A stretch of 17,318 bases of DNA, taken from UHGV virus genome UHGV-0074612; one strand, written 5' to 3'. Each line of letters opens with the position of its first letter. The stretch's first letter is position 1. The stretch is from a virus. The notes under the pieces are model-generated. The model saw only the letters and a list, made by a program, of their open reading frames with translations, was not told the origin of the DNA and did no database searches. Shown piece after piece: positions 7,465 through 17,268 of this stretch. The translations under genes were made by a program, and so were the position numbers.

Positions 7465-7549
7465 AGTCAGAGATAACAATCAACTAATACTGTTTTGTTG
7501 ATTTTTGCTTGTAATTGGCGTTTTGGTCTGATTTTTGTGGAGTAAGTTG

Positions 7550-7933
7550 ATGCGTGATATTCAGATGGTTCTTGAGCGTTGGGGAGCGTGGGCGGCTAAT
7601 AATCATGAAGATGTGACCTGGTCGTCCATTGCCGCCGGTTTTAAGGGATTAATTCCTTCAAAAGTAAAATCTCGCCCGCAATGTTGTGACGATGACGCGA
7701 TGATCATTTGCGGGTGCATGGCCCGCCTGAAAAAGAACAACAGCGATTTGCACGATTTATTAGTAGATTATTATATAGTCGGTATGACATTCATGTCACT
7801 GGCAGGTAAGCATTGCTGCTCTGATGGTTATATCGGGAAAAGGTTACAAAAGGCTGAGGGCATAATTGAAGGGATGTTAATGGCATTAGATATCCGGTTA
7901 GAGATGGATATCGTTGTTAATAACTCTAATTAA
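7550..7933 (+). CDS. Late-gene antiterminator Q (QuuD-like)
   Basis: Track ORF 7535..7933; ATG at 7550 after GGAGTAAG gives [24 protein letters not shown]... with a Cys-rich zinc-binding region, resembling the DLP12 QuuD antiterminator. Confidence 0.88.
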
Positions 7934-8121: not shown

Positions 8122-9204
8122 TTAGAACTGGTAAACCATACCTACAGCAACGATATCATCGGTAGCAACGCCAGATGCTTTCGTGAAATCGCTCTTATCA
8201 ATCAGGTTGATTTTGTAGTCAACAAAAGTGGACATATTTTTGTTGAAGTAATAGGTTGCACCTACATCAACATATTCAACCAGGTCCTGATCACCCCAAA
8301 CACCCAAGTCTTTTCCTTTAGAATGCAGGTAAGCAACGGATGGACGCAGGCCGAAGTCGAACTGATATTGTGCAACAGCTTCGAAGTTTTGTGCTTTGTT
8401 GGCAATATGGTTATTACCAAAAACAGTCATGTTCTGGGTTTCAGAATAGGTGGTGGCCAGATAGATGTTGTTCGCATCATATTTCAGACCAGCTGCCCAT
8501 ACTTCAGCATTTTGACCAGAAGCATTCAGACCGTTGTTACCGTAGATAACCTGATTATTAGTGCGATCAGATTTAGCATAGGTTGCACCCACGCCGAATC
8601 CTTCATACTCATAAGTAGTTGAGAAACCGAAACCATCGCCATTAGCTTCAGTTACTTCATTTCGGTCATTTTTGCCCTGATACTGAGCTGCAAAGTTCAG
8701 GCCATCAACCAGACCAAAGAAGTCGTTGTTACGATAAGTTGCAACACCTGTGGTGCGACCAGTCATGAATACATCTGTTTGGGTCCAGGTATCGCCACCG
8801 AATTCTGGCAGAACGTCGGTCCATGCACCGATGTCGTATGCTACACCGTAGTTACGGCCGTAATCGATGGAGCCGTAGTCACCGAATTTCAGGCCAGCGA
8901 AGGCAAGACGGGTTTTATCTTTGGAGGAACCTTGAGATTCAGCGCGGTTGCCTTTGAATTCATATTCCCACTGACCGAAACCAGTCAGTTGATCGTTGAT
9001 TTGGGTTTCACCTTTGAAGCCAAGACGGGCATAAGTAGTATCACCATCATCTGCATCATTAGAGGAGAAGTAGTGCTTAGCATTAACTTTCCCGTACAGA
9101 TCCAGCTTGTTACTGTCTTTATTATAAATTTCAGCTGCCTGAGCAGACATCGCCATCAGTACTGATGCAGCTACAGCAGAAATTGCCACTGTTAATTTTT
9201 TCAT
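8122..9204 (-). CDS. nmpC: OmpC/OmpF-family general porin, prophage-encoded (NmpC/Lc-like)
   Basis: 360-aa ORF with signal peptide [23 protein letters not shown] then AEIYNKD..., C-terminal VGMVYQF ending in Phe; located between Q and the holin on the opposite strand, as nmpC is in DLP12. Confidence 0.93.
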
Positions 9205-9777: not shown

Positions 9778-9993
9778 ATGAAATCCATGGATAAGTTAAC
9801 AACGGGTGTCGCCTATGGCACCTCAGCAGGTAGTGCCGGGTACTGGTTTTTACAGCTGCTCGATAAAGTCACGCCCTCACAGTGGGCAGCAATAGGTGTG
9901 CTGGGTAGCCTGGTATTTGGCCTGCTGACGTACCTGACAAACCTTTATTTCAAGATTAAAGAAGATAAGCGCAAGGCTGCGAGAGGTGAATAA
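9778..9993 (+). CDS. Phage-21-type pinholin (S21/EssD-like) with dual start motif
   Basis: 71-aa [29 protein letters not shown]...; Met1/Met4 dual start, two TMDs, charged C-terminus; GAGGTGG upstream. Confidence 0.92.
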
Positions 9994-10490
9994 TGCCTCC
10001 ATCATTACGAAAAGCCGTTGCTGCTGCTATTGGTGGCGGAGCAATTGCTATAGCATCAGTGTTAATCACTGGCCCAAGTGGTAACGATGGTCTGGAAGGT
10101 GTCAGCTACATACCATACAAAGATATTGTTGGTGTATGGACTGTATGTCACGGGCATACAGGAAAAGACATCATGCTCGGTAAAACGTATACCAAAGCAG
10201 AATGCAAAGCCCTCCTGAATAAAGACCTTGCCACGGTCGCCAGACAAATTAACCCGTACATAAAAGTTGATATACCGGAAACAACGCGCGGCGCTCTTTA
10301 CTCGTTCGTTTACAACGTGGGCGCTGGCAATTTCAGAACATCGACACTTCTTCGCAAAATAAACCAGGGCGATATCAAAGGCGCATGTGATCAGCTACGT
10401 CGCTGGACATATGCTGGCGGTAAGCAATGGAAAGGTCTCATGACTCGTCGTGAGATTGAGCGTGAAATCTGTTTGTGGGGTCAGCAATGA
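9993..10490 (+). CDS. SAR endolysin (phage-21 R / RrrD-like lysozyme)
   Basis: 165-aa ORF with N-terminal Gly/Ala-rich signal-anchor-release segment [20 protein letters not shown] followed by a lysozyme domain; start overlaps the holin stop. Confidence 0.92.
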
Positions 10491-10945
10491 ACAGAGTAAC
10501 CGCGATTATCTCCGCTCTGGTTATCTGCATCATCGTCTGCCTGTCATGGGCTGTTAATCATTACCGTGATAACGCCATTACCTACAAAGCCCAGCGCGAC
10601 AAAAATGCCAGAGAACTGGAGAAGGCGAACGCCACCATCGCTGACATGCGGAAGCGTCAACGTGATGTAGCAGAACTCGACGCAAGATACACAAAGGAGC
10701 TTGCTGATGCTAACGCGACTATCGAAAGTCTCCGTGCTGATGTTTCTGCTGGGCGTAAGCGCCTGCAAGTCGCCGCCACCTGTGCAAAGTCAACGACCGG
10801 AGCCAGCGGCATGGGCGATGGAGAAAGCCCAGGACTTACAGCAGATGCTGAACTCAATTATTACCGTCTCCGAAGTGGAATCGACAAGATAACCGCGCAG
10901 GTTAACTACCTGCAGGAATACATCAGGACGCAATGCCTGAAATAA
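10487..10945 (+). CDS. Spanin inner-membrane subunit Rz
   Basis: ATG at 10487 (ATGA overlap with endolysin stop) gives [21 protein letters not shown]..., an N-terminal TMD followed by a periplasmic coiled-coil-like region. Confidence 0.88.
10701..10892 (+). CDS. Spanin outer-membrane lipoprotein Rz1, embedded in Rz in the +1 frame
   Basis: 63-aa ORF wholly inside Rz; signal peptide with lipobox VSAC followed by a proline-rich segment [13 protein letters not shown]. Confidence 0.8.
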
Positions 10946-10976
10946 TTTTTTTGCAAATCACAAAGTCCATTTAATG

Positions 10977-11000
10977 AGCCTCGCGATGCGGGGCTTTTTG
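10977..11000 (+). terminator. Lysis-operon terminator 1
   Basis: 8-bp stem AGCCTCGC/GCGGGGCT (one G-U pair) with GAT loop then TTTTG. Confidence 0.55.
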
Positions 11001-11006
11001 CAATAA

Positions 11007-11031
11007 ATGCGTACCGCAACGCATGTTTTTT
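11007..11031 (+). terminator. Lysis-operon terminator 2
   Basis: 6-bp stem ATGCGT/ACGCAT, 6-nt loop, followed by GTTTTTT. Confidence 0.6.
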
Positions 11032-11146
11032 ACACCGAACCTGCCCCTTTGGAATGGGCCTTTGAGGATACCAGTTAGTGCTGGCGAGCCTCGGTGGGCT
11101 GGTTTCCTGTGCGGCAAAGGTTCATTTCAAAGAGTAGGTACACGCT

Positions 11147-11644
11147 ATGAAATCATTAACCCTCTTCAATCAACCAATTCGTATCGGTGAAGATGGCATG
11201 ATCTGCCTCACTGATATGTGGAAAGCCAGTGGTAAAAGTGAATCTGAATCGCCTTACCACTACCTGCGAAACAAGCAGACCAAAGAGTTCTTAGCCGAGC
11301 TGGAGAAAAACCACGAATCTGTGGTTTTTACTGAGCGCGGTGTACACGGTGGAACATATGGCGGGAAGTTTGTTGCTTACGATTATGCGGCTTGGTTAAA
11401 CCCCGGGTTCAAGTACGCGGCCTATAAAGTCCTCGATGACTACTTCACCGGAGAACTTCAGCATCGCAACAGCTTAAGTGCGCAGCTCAACATGAAATGT
11501 CATGAGTTTGACCAGAAGAAAGACATGGCGAGCTTCTGCGGACAAGGGCTGGCAGCATGGCGCTATACGAAGCCAGTGTTGGTCGCTGAGATTAACTCCC
11601 TGGCTAACCAGCTGCAGATTACGATCCCCGGGCTTCCGGGATGA
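11147..11644 (+). CDS. KilA-N/Bro-N-like domain protein (165 aa)
   Basis: N-terminal FNQPIRIGEDGMICLTDMWKASGK fits the KilA-N pattern (F..IR...DG..........A.G) by eye. Confidence 0.65.
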   Translation: MKSLTLFNQPIRIGEDGMICLTDMWKASGKSESESPYHYLRNKQTKEFLAELEKNHESVVFTERGVHGGTYGGKFVAYDYAAWLNPGFKYAAYKVLDDYFTGELQHRNSLSAQLNMKCHEFDQKKDMASFCGQGLAAWRYTKPVLVAEINSLANQLQITIPGLPG

Positions 11645-11910
11645 GTGATCGTGTCATTGAATGCGCCTCCAGAGCGGGGCGCGACTTCTCAGAGTTCATG
11701 AAAGGCGAGAAGGGCATGATGGAAGCATTGGCCTCGGTGGATGAGTTTGGCGAGCAGCTGCGCCTCAACGGCTGTGTCAATCATCACTTTGTTAGCTACA
11801 TGATGCGGAACTCGATCATGCAGGCATTCATGGACATGGCAAAAGCCGAGAGGAAAGAAGAGCGCCGGCGTAAGCGAGCGGAAGCAAAAGCAAAAGCAAA
11901 AGTGAAGTAG
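11641..11910 (+). CDS. Hypothetical protein (89 aa) with Lys/Arg/Ala/Glu-rich C-terminal tail
   Basis: ATGA overlap with the stop of the KilA-N-like gene; C-terminus AKAERKEERRRKRAEAKAKAKVK. Confidence 0.6.
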   Translation: MSDRVIECASRAGRDFSEFMKGEKGMMEALASVDEFGEQLRLNGCVNHHFVSYMMRNSIMQAFMDMAKAERKEERRRKRAEAKAKAKVK

Positions 11911-11947
11911 CCATTACAAAGCCCATTTACGGGTGGGCTTGATAATG
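11911..11947. repeat. Hairpin-containing element, copy A
   Basis: CCATTACAAAGCCCATTTACGGGTGGGCTTGATAATG immediately after the TAG of the 89-aa gene; stem AAGCCCA/TGGGCTT (11919-11925/11934-11940). Confidence 0.5.
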
Positions 11948-12134
11948 AAACCGGAATTTATTCTGGGCCACCAGTTAACGGCAGTACCACGAAACAACCC
12001 AAGCCAGTAAGTGGGGAAATAACACCGGCAGCCACTGAAAGATGAACCTCCTGCCTTATGGCAAAAAAGATTCTTTGTGGTGGCGGACTGATGGAAAGAC
12101 ATCCTAATTTCAGCCAAACATTGAAGGAGTTGTT

Positions 12135-12206
12135 ATGTCAGCAGAAGGTTTCAATAACCCATCAAAATTCCGGGATGAGTGGGATAGCAGCGTAAAGAGT
12201 AAGTGA
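12135..12206 (+). CDS. Candidate 23-aa ORF MSAEGFNNPSKFRDEWDSSVKSK
   Basis: AAGGAG Shine-Dalgarno 6 nt upstream of the ATG; stop immediately precedes copy B of the hairpin element. Confidence 0.3.
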   Translation: MSAEGFNNPSKFRDEWDSSVKSK

Positions 12207-12207
12207 T

Positions 12208-12249
12208 GCCATCACAAAAGCCATTCCCTACAGAGTGGCTTTGATAATG
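12208..12249. repeat. Hairpin-containing element, copy B
   Basis: GCCATCACAAAAGCCATTCCCTACAGAGTGGCTTTGATAATG; shares the CCAT(Y)ACAAA(A)GCC ... GGCTT(T)GATAATG framework with copy A, with base changes that still pair in the stem. Confidence 0.5.
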
Positions 12250-12264
12250 GCTTATACCCTACAC

Positions 12265-12290
12265 GGGATAACTTAACTGATATCCCTTTT
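12265..12290 (+). terminator. Possible intrinsic terminator
   Basis: Stem GGGATA/TATCCC (12265-12270/12281-12286), 10-nt loop, then TTTT. Confidence 0.4.
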
Positions 12291-12498
12291 AAAGGATAAA
12301 GGCATTCAAGCCTGACACATCATGCGCTGTATCGTCGCCGTATTCCCGTATTAACAGAGACCGTAGCCCGACGGGGAACTCCTTCTGCGCGAGTGTGCGG
12401 GAATAATCAAAAACGATGCACACCGGGGTTACCGGGTACACATATTTCATCATGCCAGCGAGTCCGGTTCTGGCACGGAAGAAACCGGACGTTATGAT

Positions 12499-12909
12499 TT
12501 AGTGCGGAAATATTTGTGTAGTGTTCTGAATGTTCTCAGTAAAGAGTAATGAATTATCAAAGGTATAGTAATACCTTTTGTTTTCGTGGATATTTGTAAT
12601 CCATCTGAAAACCCCTGCTGTAGCAAGATTTTTCCTGTATTCGTAAAATGATAACTCTCCTGATTTGAATCCTTTTAAGGTGGCTTCTATAAGGCATTTA
12701 TTTTTTGAAAATCTTACATTTACAACCTTACCCTGTCCTTTTATTAAAACCGTATTATCGTTTTCAAGAACAAGATGAATATTCTCTGTGGCTAAATAGT
12801 AAATGTAATGTGAGACATTGTGACGTTTTAGTTCAGAATAAAACCAGTGATAGTTTAAATTATTTCGCACTTTATCGAATATTTGTTTAAAAATGGCAAC
12901 CTGAGCCAT
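12499..12909 (-). CDS. YbcV-like (DUF1398-like) protein, 136 aa, AT-rich
   Basis: Track ORF 12499..12924; ATG at 12909 preceded by GAAGGT gives [17 protein letters not shown]..., matching my recollection of DLP12 YbcV and its 136-aa length. Gene is markedly AT-rich relative to its flanks. Confidence 0.75.
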
Positions 12910-12966
12910 TGTAGTACCTTCCATGTGATATGAGGGGGCGTAGTCTGCACGATTATCTAAATTGCT

Positions 12967-13200
12967 TCAATCTGGTCTAACCTGTTTTCTGAGCAATTCA
13001 GTAATGTCACTCTTTTCTTTGTTTGCTTCAGGCGAAACTCTTTTTTCTGAGCACAGTCTCCGGCGGCAGGCTTCAATGACCCAGGCTGAGAAATTCCCGG
13101 ACCCTTTTTGAACAAGAGCGATGTTAATTTGTTCAATCATTTGGTTAGGAAAGCGGATGTTGCGGGTTGTTGTTCTGCGGGTTCTGTTCTTCGTTGACAT
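12967..13200 (-). CDS. YlcI-like small protein with putative ribbon-helix-helix fold (77 aa)
   Basis: Co-directional and 42 bp upstream of the YbcV-like gene; basic N-terminus then RNIRFPNQMIEQINIALVQKGSGNFSAWVIEACRRRL, which reads like a strand-helix-helix unit. Confidence 0.6.
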   Translation of the reverse strand: MSTKNRTRRTTTRNIRFPNQMIEQINIALVQKGSGNFSAWVIEACRRRLCSEKRVSPEANKEKSDITELLRKQVRPD

Positions 13201-13379: not shown

Positions 13380-13445
13380 CGGCGATCCGACAGGTTACGG
13401 GGCGGAAGGCGCGCGGGTTTTCGCTATTTATGAAAATTTTCCGGG
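13380..13445. other. cos site region with cosN-like 12-mer at 13400-13411
   Basis: GCGATCCGACAGGTTACG + GGGCGGAAGGCG + CGCGGGTTTTCGCTATTTATGAAAATTTTCCGG; both flanks match the lambda right and left ends as I recall, but the 12-mer differs from lambda GGGCGGCGACCT at its last six positions. Confidence 0.65.
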
Positions 13446-13587: not shown

Positions 13588-13704
13588 ATGAAGGTTAATA
13601 AAAAGAAACTTGCCGAAATTTTCAACGTGGATCCGCGAACGATTGAACGCTGGCAGTCTCAGGGACTCCCTTGCGTCTCCGGAGGTGGCAGCGGGCCATC
13701 ATGA
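13588..13704 (+). pseudogene. Terminase small subunit (Nu1/gp1-like), N-terminal 38-codon stub
   Basis: [38 protein letters not shown] then stop; resembles the Nu1 N-terminal DNA-binding segment (lambda MEVNKKQLADIFGASIRTIQNWQEQGMPVLRGGG). The frame ends where terminase A homology begins. Confidence 0.75.
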
Positions 13705-14570
13705 ATGCGATGGGCAGTGACTACATCCGCGAGGTGAATGTGGTGAAGTCTGCCCGTGTTGGTTATTCCAAAATGCTGCTGGGTGTTTATGCCTACTTCA
13801 TAGAGCATAAGCAGCGCAACACCCTTATCTGGTTGCCGACGGATGGTGATGCCGAGAACTTTATGAAAACCCACGTTGAGCCGACTATTCGTGATATTCC
13901 GTCGCTGCTGGCGCTGGCCCCGTGGTATGGCAAAAAGCACCGGGATAACACGCTCACCATGAAGCGTTTCACTAATGGGCGTGGCTTCTGGTGCCTGGGC
14001 GGTAAAGCGGCAAAAAACTACCGTGAAAAGTCGGTGGATGTGGCGGGTTATGATGAACTTGCTGCTTTTGATGATGATATTGAACAGGAAGGCTCTCCGA
14101 CGTTCCTGGGTGACAAGCGTATTGAAGGCTCGGTCTGGCCAAAGTCCATCCGTGGCTCCACGCCCAAAGTGAGAGGCACCTGCCAGATTGAGCGTGCAGC
14201 CAGTGAATCCCCGCATTTTATGCGTTTTCATGTTGCCTGCCCGCACTGCGGGGAGGAGCAGTATCTTAAATTTGGCGACAAAGAGACGCCGTTTGGCCTC
14301 AAATGGACGCCGGATGACCCCTCCAGCGTGTTTTATCTCTGCGAGCATAATGCCTGCGTCATCCGCCAGCAGGAGCTGGACTTTACTGATGCCCGTTATA
14401 TCTGCGAAAAGACCGGGATCTGGACCCGTGATGGCATTCTCTGGTTTTCGTCATCCGGTGAAGAGATTGAGCCGCCGGACAGTGTGACCTTTCACATCTG
14501 GACGGCGTACAGCCCGTTCACCACCTGGGTGCAGATTGTCAAAGACTGGATGAAGACGAAAGGGGATACC
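13689..14570 (+). pseudogene. Terminase large subunit A, internal fragment (about residues 58-350 of lambda gpA)
   Basis: Track ORF 13671..14630; [50 protein letters not shown]... through ...[14 protein letters not shown] is lambda gpA as I recall. It lacks the gpA N-terminus and C-terminal half; the frame then runs into J-derived sequence out of frame. Confidence 0.85.
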
Positions 14571-14571
14571 C

Positions 14572-15883
14572 GAACACGGCACTGGTCGGCGTGCAGGTGG
14601 ACTCGGAGCAGTTCGGCAGCCAGCAGGTGAGCCGTAATTATCATCTGCGCGGGCGCATTCTGCAGGTGCCGTCGAACTATAACCCGCAGACGCGGCAATA
14701 CAGCGGTATCTGGGATGGAACGTTTAAGCCAGCATACAGCAACAACATGGCCTGGTGTCTGTGGGATATGCTGACCCATCCGCGCTACGGCATGGGGAAA
14801 CGTCTTGGTGCAGCAGATGTGGATAAATGGACGCTGTATGTCATCGGCCAGTACTGCGACCAGTTGGTACCGAATGGTTTTGGCGGCACGGAGCCGCGCA
14901 TCACCTGTAATGCCTGGCTGACCACACAGCGTAAGGCGTGGGATGTGCTCAGTGATTTCTGCTCGGCGATGCGCTGTATGCCGGTATGGAACGGGCAGAC
15001 GCTGACGTTCGTGCAGGACCGACCATCAGATAAGGTGTGGACCTATAACCGCAGTAATGTGGTGATGCCGGATGATGGCGCGCCGTTCCGCTACAGCTTC
15101 AGCGCCCTGAAGGACCGCCATAATGCCGTTGAGGTGAACTGGATTGACCCGAACAACGGCTGGGAGACGGCGACAGAGCTTGTTGAAGATACGCAGGCCA
15201 TTGCCCGTTACGGTCGTAATGTCACGAAGATGGATGCCTTTGGCTGTACCAGCCGGGGGCAGGCACACCGCGCCGGGCTGTGGCTGATTAAAACGGAACT
15301 GCTGGAGACGCAGACCGTGGATTTCAGCGTGGGTGCTGAAGGGCTTCGCCATGTACCGGGCGATGTCATTGAAATCTGCGATGATGACTATGCCGGTATC
15401 AGCACCGGTGGTCGCGTGCTGGCGGTGAACAGCCAGACCCGGACGCTGACGCTCGACCGTGAAATCACGCTGCCATCTTCCGGCACCACGCTGATAAGCC
15501 TGGTTGACGGGCAGGGGAGTCCGGTCAGCGTGGAGGTTCAGTCCGTCACCGACGGACTTAAGGTGAAAGTGAACCGGGTTCCTGACGGCGTTGCAGAATA
15601 CAGTGTGTGGGGGCTGAAGTTGCCGACGTTGCGTCAGCGCCTGTTCCGCTGTGTGAGTATCCGTGAGAACGATGACGGCACGTATGCCATCACTGCCGTG
15701 CAGCATGTACCGGAAAAAGAAGCCATCGTGGATAACGGGGCGCACTTTGACGGCGACCAGAGCGGCACGGTGAATGATGTCACGCCGCCAGCGGTGCAGC
15801 ACCTGACTGCCGAAGTCACCGCAGACAGCGGGGAATATCAGGTGCTGGCGCGCTGGGACACGCCGAAGGTGGTGAAGGGGGTG
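14572..15883 (+). pseudogene. Tail tip protein J, internal fragment
   Basis: Track ORF 14591..16687 begins at a GTG inside J-like sequence ([28 protein letters not shown]...). J homology runs to ...[12 protein letters not shown]; the J N-terminal third and C-terminal receptor-binding region are absent. Confidence 0.85.
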
Positions 15884-16687
15884 AAGGCACATTACAGAAA
15901 TGGAGGTCTGTTCTACCGTTCCTCAAGAGATGGCTATGGTTTTGAGGAAGACTGGGCAGAAGTTTATACCTCGAAAAATCTTCCACCAGAAAGCTACCCA
16001 GTCGGCGCACCAATCCCGTGGCCATCAGATACCGTTCCGTCTGGTTATGCCCTGATGCAGGGGCAGACTTTTGACAAATCTGCATACCCGAAACTTGCAG
16101 CCGCTTATCCGTCAGGCGTGATCCCTGATATGCGTGGCTGGACGATTAAGGGCAAACCTGCCAGTGGTCGCGCCGTATTGTCTCAGGAACAGGACGGCAT
16201 TAAATCGCACACCCACAGCGCCAGCGCATCCAGTACGGATTTGGGGACGAAAACCACATCGTCGTTTGATTACGGAACCAAATCCACGAATAACACCGGG
16301 GCGCATACCCATAGTATTAGCGGGACCGCAAATAGTGCCGGCGCGCACCAACACAAGAGTTCCGGTGCATTTGGTGGCACGAACACGAGCATTTTCCCTA
16401 ATGGTTATACCGCGATTTCAAATCCAAGCGCGGGGATTATGAGCACAACAAGCGGTAGTGGTCAGACTCGTAATGCAGGGAAGACATCATCAGATGGTGC
16501 TCATACCCACTCGCTGTCCGGCACTGCTGCAAGCGCAGGCGCACATGCACATACTGTCGGTATTGGTGCTCATACGCACTCCGTTGCGATTGGCTCACAT
16601 GGACACACCATCACCGTTAACGCTGCGGGTAACGCGGAAAACACCGTCAAAAACATCGCATTTAACTATATTGTGAGGCTTGCATAA
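15884..16687 (+). pseudogene. Side tail fibre (Stf-like) C-terminal region, fused in frame to the J fragment
   Basis: ...[45 protein letters not shown]... with repeated Gly/His boxes ([30 protein letters not shown]) and C-terminus [11 protein letters not shown], typical of lambda Stf and T4 gp37-type fibre tips. Confidence 0.8.
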
Positions 16688-17268
16688 TGGCATTCAGAAT
16701 GAGTGAACAAGCACGGACCATAAAAATTTATAATCTGCTGGCCGGAACTAATGAATTTATTGGTGAAGGTGACGCATATATTCCGCCTCATACAGGTCTG
16801 CCAGCAAACAGTACCGATATTGCACCACCAGATATTCCGGCAGGCTTCGTGGCTGTTTTCAACAGTGATGAGGCATCGTGGCATCTCGTTGAAGACCATC
16901 GGGGGAAAACGGTTTATGACGTAGCGTCAGGGGACGAGTTATTTATTTCTGAACTCGGTCCGTTACCGGAAAATGTTACCTGGTTATCGCCGGGAGGGGA
17001 ATATCAGAAGTGGAACGGCACAGCCTGGGTGAAGGATACGGAAGCAGAAAAACTGTTCCGGATCCGGGAGGCGGAAGAAACAAAAAACAGCCTGATGCAG
17101 ATAGCCAGTGAGCATATAGCGCCGCTTCAGGATGCTGTGGATCTGGAGATCGCAACGGAGGAAGAAACCTTGTTGCTGGAAGCCTGGAAAAAGTATCGGG
17201 TGTTGCTGAACCGTGTTGATACATCAACTGCACCGGATATTGAATGGCCAGTAGCACCTATAGGGTAA
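16687..17268 (+). CDS. tfa: Tail fibre assembly protein Tfa
   Basis: 193-aa [42 protein letters not shown]...; start overlaps the stop of the upstream tail-fibre ORF; lambda Tfa-like length and sequence as I recall. Confidence 0.9.

Follow-up and report, generated by a model that had tools for sequence, protein, structure and literature searches.

In the stretch of DNA analysed here (the window, 17,318 nucleotides of the virus genome UHGV-0074612), two overlapping genes follow the lysis genes of a defective prophage. They encode a KilA-N protein (ORF1) and a small partner (ORF2), and they are preceded by a conserved structured leader RNA that we also found before the rha gene of phage P22. 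These data make it probable that the pair belongs to the Bro/KilA-N antirepressor-like network as an accessory cassette of the late operon, dependent on the antiterminator Q and translationally throttled. It would be a counterpart of P22 rha in which the N-terminal domain has been swapped and a small coupled gene has been added. Of all the elements of the locus, the leader RNA is the most novel.

Gene order and domains of the pair

ORF1 (11147–11644, + strand) starts with ATG, encodes 165 amino acids and corresponds to hkbK of phage HK620. ORF2 (11641–11910, + strand) also starts with ATG, encodes 89 amino acids and corresponds to HK620 hkbL. The stop codon of ORF1 and the start codon of ORF2 share the ATGA at 11641–11644 (+ strand), an arrangement of translational coupling. 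Both reading frames and their overlap, as described in the original prediction, can be read directly from the sequence. The prediction also placed the pair after the lysis genes and before cos. Pfam searches bore out the first part: genes for a P21-type holin (9778–9993) and a lysozyme (9993–10490) lie upstream of the pair and Rz (10475–10945) directly precedes its spacer, while the antiterminator Q gene (7535–7933) and a porin gene (8122–9204, − strand) lie upstream of the lysis genes. The second part holds for intact relatives, in which nohD and the terminase genes follow, but not for the window, from which the cos/nohD segment is absent. Downstream of the pair, Pfam identified a DUF1398 gene (12499–12924) and a YlcI/DUF3950 gene (12967–13200), both on the − strand. 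Collinearity with an intact relative then ends at 13444 and restarts within the large terminase gene at 13689. The prophage in the window is defective, with a terminase ATPase fragment that adjoins the tail-fibre genes, and ORF1 and ORF2 are both intact within it, which could indicate usefulness to the host instead of the phage. ORF1 and ORF2 are genuine coding genes. Compared with the copies in HK620, HK022 and Klebsiella phage RAH1, dN/dS was approximately 0.2 for ORF1 and 0.08–0.16 for ORF2, and this strong purifying selection implies that the proteins themselves are functional.

The predicted KilA-N domain of ORF1 was recovered by profile search (PF04383, 57.6 bits against a Pfam cut-off of 23.8). 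It spans residues 9–101 (nucleotides 11171–11449) and covers profile positions 8–106 of 107. Bro-N (PF02498), which the prediction had named alongside it, gave no Pfam profile match at E ≤ 0.1 in ORF1 or ORF2. The C-terminus of ORF1 contains an ORF11CD3 domain (PF10549, 50.5 bits against a cut-off of 25; residues 109–161, nucleotides 11471–11629), which had been missed in the first reading of the sequence. ORF1 further matches PHROG 129 and PHROG 10441. Its AlphaFold model (pLDDT 84.5) has a beta/alpha N-terminal domain, consisting of two beta-hairpin strands and helices, followed by two long helices (86–130 and 132–156). The best Foldseek match of this model in the PDB was not significant (E = 0.79), with the Mbp1 APSES domain second (E = 0.79), and PDB sequence searches with ORF1 and ORF2 returned empty or chance-level results. 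ORF1 may be pictured as a putative DNA-binding-type KilA-N domain mounted on a two-helix ORF11CD3 stalk. As ORF11CD3 is common to Rha and P22_AR_N proteins, the stalk probably serves in oligomerisation or partner binding. ORF1 is approximately 30% identical to P1 KilA over residues 17–127, and its KilA-N profile match suggests that it is a member of the same KilA-N/APSES DNA-binding domain family. Unlike ORF1, P1 KilA has its own KilA-C/ANT-type C-terminal domain and is part of a C1-controlled lytic replicon, not of a late operon.

The original prediction recognised no family for ORF2, and our searches agree. Its only match was PHROG 875, a family of unknown function (E = 3.7e-54), with residues 1–85 aligned to profile positions 1–85 of 85, i.e., over the full length of the profile; no Pfam model matched, and neither did any model in an NCBIfam search. 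The family is narrow, with 21 cluster representatives among 1.8 billion proteins. In the AlphaFold model of ORF2 (pLDDT 91), three helices span residues 3–20, 26–42 and 48–88. The last of these is long and Arg/Lys-rich, and the protein has a charged C-terminal tail (KAERKEERRRKRAEAKAKAKVK). A Foldseek search of the model against the PDB found nothing significant (best E = 1.7). ORF2 is modelled as a three-helix domain with an arginine-rich tail. A metal site formed by C8, C45, H48 and H49, which are invariant in close homologues, was considered and rejected, as C8 is replaced by Ser or Ala in the homologues P0122 and P0132 and C45 by Val in P0135.

A relationship was found with T5orf172/MUG113 proteins of the Bro network (PHROG 4284), which are GIY-YIG-like and whose N-terminal ~60 residues are homologous to ORF2. 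In two of these, the distant relatives P0132 and P0135, the ORF2-like domain forms the N-terminus, and the link is bidirectional, with a reciprocal match to PHROG 875. The P0132 gene adjoins a KilA-N-P63C gene. Unlike these proteins, ORF2 stands alone and has a basic tail where the nuclease-like domain would be. The domain shared with the N-termini of T5orf172 proteins makes ORF2 a likelier candidate for a nucleic-acid or target-recognition module than for an antidote specific to ORF1.

Distribution and mosaicism

The pair is not new as a sequence. It is common in lambdoid phages, where it has been annotated but not characterised: it is the hkbK/hkbL pair of HK620 (96% amino acid identity for ORF1, 100% over 85 residues for ORF2) and also occurs in other phages and in many E. 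coli genomes. These include ECP1, the Stx phages 1717 and 2851 (where ORF1 is annotated as 'kilA'), Shigella phage Ss-VASD, and Salmonella and Klebsiella phages. In HK620, as in the Stx phages ('kilA' and its neighbour) and ECP1, the genes, their order, the 4-nt overlap and the slot after Rz are the same, and the HK620 locus shows no essential difference from that in the window; its leader is a sequence variant with the same fold. Among 5426 complete E. coli genomes, 525 (~10%) contain the pair, 389 of these at a coverage of 80% or more, and the annotation there is 'KilA-N domain-containing protein' followed by 'hypothetical protein'. No functional study of either gene turned up in our literature searches.

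Close spacing of the two genes is a conserved feature, with either a 4-nt overlap or a 2-nt gap kept in HK620, RAH1, HK022, mEp234 and a further locus (L090). The identity of the upstream protein is not. Homologues of ORF2 follow hkbK-type KilA-N-ORF11CD3 genes with a 4-nt overlap, KilA-N-P63C genes with a 2-nt gap (HK022, mEp234, mEpX1 and others) and, in one metagenomic lineage, the gene of a 234-aa pRha protein, again overlapping by 4 nt. No domain is common to all three types of upstream protein. Conversely, KilA-N-ORF11CD3 genes occur without a partner in ST104 and in Pseudomonas phage D3, whose orf11 product appears to be the protein that gave the ORF11CD3 domain its name, and an Actinobacillus phage carries an ORF1 that is 96% identical beside a truncated ORF2. 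The idea of a fixed two-gene unit does not survive these solo ORF1-type genes and the three different proteins ahead of ORF2 homologues. Nor can ORF2 be, as a general rule, the specific partner of ORF11CD3 or of KilA-N, as it also follows KilA-N-P63C and pRha proteins and many ORF11CD3 proteins are partnerless. From its varied upstream proteins, the solo ORF1-type genes and the T5orf172 fusions, ORF2 is therefore best seen as one more shuffled domain of the Bro network and not as a dedicated antidote to ORF1. Domain swapping is characteristic of Bro-network proteins, which are often regulatory and for which a link to HNH_3 has been noted (PMC10111431).

Recombination joints in the mosaic coincide with gene boundaries, namely the start codon and the junction of ORF1 and ORF2. 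The cassette is also found in different slots. It follows Rz in E. coli and HK620; other copies lie between R and Rz or among tail genes. The last case is that of Klebsiella phage RAH1, where the major tail and tape-measure genes flank the pair, its leader and a terminator hairpin. A hairpin directly follows the ORF2 stop codon (11912–11947, + strand; CATTACAAAGCCCA...TGGGCTTGATAATG), an inverted repeat with an RNAfold energy of −17.0 kcal/mol and no T-run. The sequence of its 5' arm, ATCACAAAGCCCATT, occurs in three copies, in each case just 3' of a stop codon. It is followed by a conserved non-coding stretch that travels with ORF2 (11948–12103, not assigned to a strand), delimited by homology to HK620, HK022 and mEp234. 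This homology starts inside ORF2 (or ORF1) and reaches 12103 regardless of the type of ORF1 upstream. The next 129 nt of the window (12104–12232) are absent from HK620.

A conserved leader RNA before ORF1 and P22 rha

The spacer upstream of ORF1 (10946–11146, 201 nt) contains two terminator-like hairpins and a rod hairpin of approximately 100 nt. The first terminator-like hairpin, T1 (10977–10999, + strand), lies just 3' of Rz and reads AGCCTCGC-GAT-GCGGGGCT followed by five Ts. It was identified directly from the sequence and is one T short of the T-run criterion of the terminator scan; the surrounding region (10950–11005) has an RNAfold energy of −18.2 kcal/mol. Hairpins with the T1 stem AGCCTCG...CGGGGCT and a T-run also precede the pair in HK620 and Klebsiella phage RAH1. 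The second, T2 (11007–11031, + strand; ATGCGT-ACCGCA-ACGCAT followed by six Ts), was found by the terminator scan and has an RNAfold energy of −6.9 kcal/mol. The original prediction had assigned a putative promoter region of its own to the pair. A sigma-70 scan found no promoter-like site in 10946–11146, where terminator-like and ribosome-binding-site-hiding hairpins lie instead, and no sigma-70-like site upstream of the same pair in HK620 and RAH1 either. As this consensus scan is crude, weak or non-sigma-70 promoters may have escaped it.

The rod hairpin forms the core of a conserved structured 5' leader (11030–11149, + strand) that ends at the ATG of ORF1. Its stem spans approximately 11039–11139, with 40 modelled pairs. 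The base of the 3' stem pairs the Shine-Dalgarno (SD) sequence GUAGGU (11134–11139), and the rod ends 8 nt before the ATG. In the window, the leader folds with a minimum free energy of −48.7 kcal/mol (z = −3.45). Five divergent leader types all fold into one SD-pairing rod, with minimum free energies of −39 to −49 kcal/mol and z-scores of −1.9 to −3.5. They include leaders that precede KilA-N-P63C genes and the KilA-N gene of ST104, which encodes a protein of only 26% identity. A consensus obtained with MAFFT and RNAalifold gave a muddled three-way structure, which we rejected, since single-sequence folds and the covariance-model alignment yield one rod.

Several lines of evidence support this structure, on one strand only. 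Covariance-model scores reached 133–140 bits on the + strand but 15 on the − strand. The window-type leader alone was enough to build a model that recovered the remaining leader types, and the second-round model detected HK022-type leaders, which were outside its training set, at E about 3e-5. Compensatory changes were found in 27 of the 40 pairs in a first sample of leaders, with 93.4% of cells paired, against 3–7 pairs in slid controls. A second, independent sample, fetched from viral contigs via a short pattern, gave the same count (27/40, 91.5% paired; slid controls 2–11 pairs). The GG of the SD lies within the paired 3' stem base in 38 of 42 leader variants, and the internal loop on the 3' side, UCCUGUGCGACAAGG, hardly varies. 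The leader is thus a conserved, one-strand hairpin that sequesters the SD and whose pairs are kept by compensatory change. Rfam contains no match to it at the gathering threshold, and none of relevance at E ≤ 1 in 10900–12500.

In shape, the leader is a long helix interrupted by a conserved asymmetric internal loop, which points to a possible RNase III processing site. RNase III-processed leaders include the lambda N leader and the T7 R sites, and homing endonuclease genes of T4, both free-standing and intron-borne, have hairpins that sequester the ribosome-binding site. Like these examples, the leader of the pair is a long hairpin that would mask or control the ribosome-binding site of an accessory gene, potentially a harmful one, within a long polycistronic phage transcript, and it has an asymmetric internal loop inside a long helix. 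Unlike these examples, with which it shares no sequence relationship, it is confined to lambdoid late-operon cassettes and is absent from Rfam.

The leader is not restricted to the hkbK-type gene. Elsewhere it precedes KilA-N genes with ORF11CD3, with P63C or with KilA-N alone; pRha genes with or without ORF11CD3; an 'ant'-like gene between R and Rz that encodes P22_AR_N and ORF11CD3; and AntA and ANT genes. It also precedes three kinds of HNH_3 endonuclease gene, the gene of the ORF2-like-T5orf172 fusion P0135 and the gene of a TerB-like protein. The majority of leader-led Bro genes have no partner gene. Before P22 rha, the second-round model (R2) matched with 108 bits, ending at the in-frame ATG. 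P22 Rha consists of pRha and ORF11CD3 and its gene lies directly 3' of Rz, which means that ORF1 differs from it only in the N-terminal domain. As ORF1 carries KilA-N instead of pRha, it is a domain-swapped relative of Rha and not its orthologue. P22/phi80 Rha (Phage_pRha, PF09669) thus resembles the pair in its position after Rz in P22, in its leader and in its C-terminal ORF11CD3 domain. In addition to its pRha N-terminal domain, P22 Rha differs from the pair in having no coupled ORF2-like gene. According to the Pfam description of PF09669 and, reportedly, to Henthorn and Friedman (1995), rha belongs to the late operon and is inhibitory to phage growth in IHF-deficient hosts. To our knowledge, an IHF phenotype is known solely for rha. 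The leader in the window contains no IHF consensus site, only matches with one mismatch at background frequency.

Proposed expression and origin of the cassette

The similarities to P22 rha suggest how the cassette may work. It would be the positional and regulatory equivalent of rha, with KilA-N in place of pRha. Transcription would reach the pair only from the Q-antiterminated late promoter, through the two terminator-like hairpins, and translation of ORF1 would be throttled by the ~100-nt leader hairpin that pairs its SD. Relief of this block would require RNA processing (e.g., by RNase III at the UCCUGUGCGACAAGG loop), melting by ribosomes or helicases, or a trans factor. ORF2 would then be made by termination-reinitiation at the ATGA. 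The terminator-like hairpins, together with an SD-hiding leader that is common to the late gene P22 rha, argue for low-level, Q-dependent late expression and against expression in the lysogen. Judging from the sequence, we infer that the pair is expressed late and at a low level and is repressed at translation. Its role may be regulatory, similar to Rha or antirepressors, one of the functions that the original prediction had considered.

The other explanations that we considered are less well supported than this late-operon cassette. One is that the unit of leader and gene is selfish and mobile, spreading among lambdoid genomes by recombination or homing-like events, so that a benefit to the phage is unnecessary. 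The terminators and the SD-hiding hairpin would then mainly limit harm to the carrier phage, comparable to the free-standing homing endonuclease genes of T4. Such mobility fits the leader's presence before HNH_3 endonuclease genes and the GIY-YIG-like T5orf172 fusion, the differing slots, the mosaic joints exactly at the start codon and the ORF1/ORF2 boundary, the near-identical ORF1 in the Actinobacillus phage and the suggested HNH_3-mediated mobilisation of Bro genes (PMC10111431). However, neither ORF1 nor ORF2 contains a nuclease domain and both proteins are under strong purifying selection, and we regard a purely selfish cassette as unlikely. This explanation and the late-operon cassette overlap.

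Superinfection exclusion or abortive-infection defence by a self-promoted moron expressed in the lysogen, in line with the exclusion function raised in the original prediction, would make the pair comparable to BstA, a prophage-encoded abortive-infection protein whose N-terminal domain is KilA-N (PMC8585504). The slot 3' of the lysis genes often holds morons, and both genes are intact in a defective prophage. In PADLOC-DB 2.0, ORF1 gave only a partial match of ~30 residues to the candidate family PDC-S22 (E = 1.2e-8) and ORF2 matched QatB at E = 0.017; the pair matched no complete system, and exclusion or defence thus gained no positive support. The absence of a promoter-like site in the window, HK620 and RAH1 alike speaks against a self-promoted moron, as do the two terminator-like hairpins and the SD-sequestering leader that lie upstream, the latter shared with a late gene. 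ORF1 is also half as large as BstA, whose C-terminal domain it does not have, and BstA is expressed in the lysogen from a locus beside the repressor, whereas ORF1 lies in the late operon behind terminators and an SD-hiding leader. A BstA-like role is therefore distinctly improbable. Still less probable is a kil/anti-kil pair, in which ORF1 would have a toxicity like that of P1 KilA, neutralised stoichiometrically by ORF2 as a result of translational coupling. The similarity of the KilA-N domain to that of P1 KilA, the tight and conserved ATGA coupling and the small size of the partner are what such a pair would look like. However, ORF1-type genes occur alone in ST104 and D3, most leader-led Bro genes are partnerless, and the Actinobacillus phage retains ORF1 beside a truncated ORF2. 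ORF2 homologues follow three proteins with no common domain, the ORF2 domain is also fused to T5orf172, and neither ORF matched a toxin-antitoxin family. Together, these observations make a toxin and its dedicated antidote very improbable.

Returning to the late-operon cassette, a more far-reaching proposal, which we put forward tentatively and consider rather unlikely, concerns the leader and ORF2 together. The leader may represent an undescribed class of cis-regulatory RNA that marks and controls mobile accessory cassettes of Bro-network and HNH/GIY-YIG genes throughout the late operons of lambdoid phages, with P22 rha among them. By virtue of its arginine-rich C-terminal helix (EERRRKRAEAKAKAK), which is reminiscent of the arginine-rich motifs of N proteins, ORF2 may be an RNA- or DNA-binding adaptor that acts on the leader or on the hairpins at the cassette ends, tuning expression or promoting exchange.

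Our analysis places an ordinary gene pair, which carries annotations in Stx-converting phages and in hundreds of prophages of E. coli, Shigella, Salmonella and Klebsiella, beside the experimentally studied rha of P22, with which it has its slot, its leader and its C-terminal domain in common. It also ties the fold of ORF2 to the N-termini of T5orf172 nuclease-like proteins and uncovers a strongly covarying leader RNA, absent from Rfam, before many antirepressor-like and homing-type endonuclease genes of late operons. The leader RNA and the link between ORF2 and the T5orf172 domain are the parts that most deserve follow-up. If the leader truly gates translation, this would account for the tolerance of lambdoid phages to Bro-family and endonuclease cassettes that are potentially harmful, and the leader would provide a simple marker for locating such cassettes.

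Sequences following stop codons

The sequence ATCACAAAGCCCATT occurs three times on the plus strand of the window, allowing up to two mismatches, and each copy begins 3-12 nt after a stop codon. The first copy (10957-10971) follows the stop of the lysis gene Rz, the second (11913-11927) that of ORF2, the 89-aa partner of the KilA-N gene ORF1, and the third (12211-12225) that of a 23-codon ORF. In copies 2 and 3, the sequence makes up the 5' arm of a long hairpin (-17 and -22 kcal/mol, respectively), which ends in the sequence GGCTTGATAATG and is not accompanied by a T-run. These ATCACAAAGCCCATT/GGCTTGATAATG hairpins resemble structures that mark the end of a cassette, or 'boundary' sequences for recombination.

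The 23-codon ORF, MSAEGFNNPSKFRDEWDSSVKSK (12136-12207), lies within a segment of 129 nt (12104-12232) that is missing from phages HK620, HK022 and mEp234. It is preceded by a strong AAGGAG 6 nt 5' of its ATG and followed by a hairpin of the ATCACAAAGCCCATT/GGCTTGATAATG type, and could either encode a small protein or be a remnant.

The right end of the prophage

The window contains a defective prophage. It is collinear with an intact relative up to 13444 and again from 13689, within the large terminase gene, and cos and nohD are therefore missing. A fragment of the gpA ATPase domain (13671-14630) leads directly into a J-like/tail-fibre ORF (14591-16687), which is followed by a tail-fibre assembly gene (16687-17268). 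The latter contains a full-length match on the plus strand to the Rfam family IS009 (RF02111; 17030-17228), scoring 221 bits against a gathering score of 117.

Altered copies of the cassette

ORF1 is frameshifted in some copies (loci L015, L023 and L024). One metagenomic protein is a chimera in which residues 1-68 of a pRha protein are joined to ORF1 from residue 44 on, and in another the C-terminus of ORF1 is joined to ORF2 by a frameshift fusion (P0148 and P0001 are the proteins listed for these two cases). The record of Actinobacillus phage vB_Apl-pPE4, a Pasteurellaceae phage, contains DNA (1958-2565) that is ~93% identical to the E. coli cassette; besides the leader and ORF1, this region includes the initial 65 nt of ORF2, which is truncated at that point. 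Such E. coli-like DNA either was transferred recently between families or stems from faulty assembly or contamination.

Leaders in P22 and in Stx-type prophages

In P22 (NC_002371), the leader match covers 1028-1147 and the rha CDS is annotated from 1076, which places its start inside the hairpin's 5' arm. The covariance-model match runs as far as an ATG at 1145 that is in frame and preceded by GAAGG. Starting at this ATG gives a 178-aa protein with both the pRha and the ORF11CD3 domain intact, so rha is probably annotated as starting 23 codons too early.

In some Stx-type prophages (L059, 1025-1702; L068, 477-1162), a second leader copy sits 5' of an 'ant'-like gene with P22_AR_N and ORF11CD3 domains, whose insertion separates the lysozyme gene from Rz. 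A single late operon can thus accommodate two Bro cassettes, each with its own leader, at a distance of 1.3 kb.
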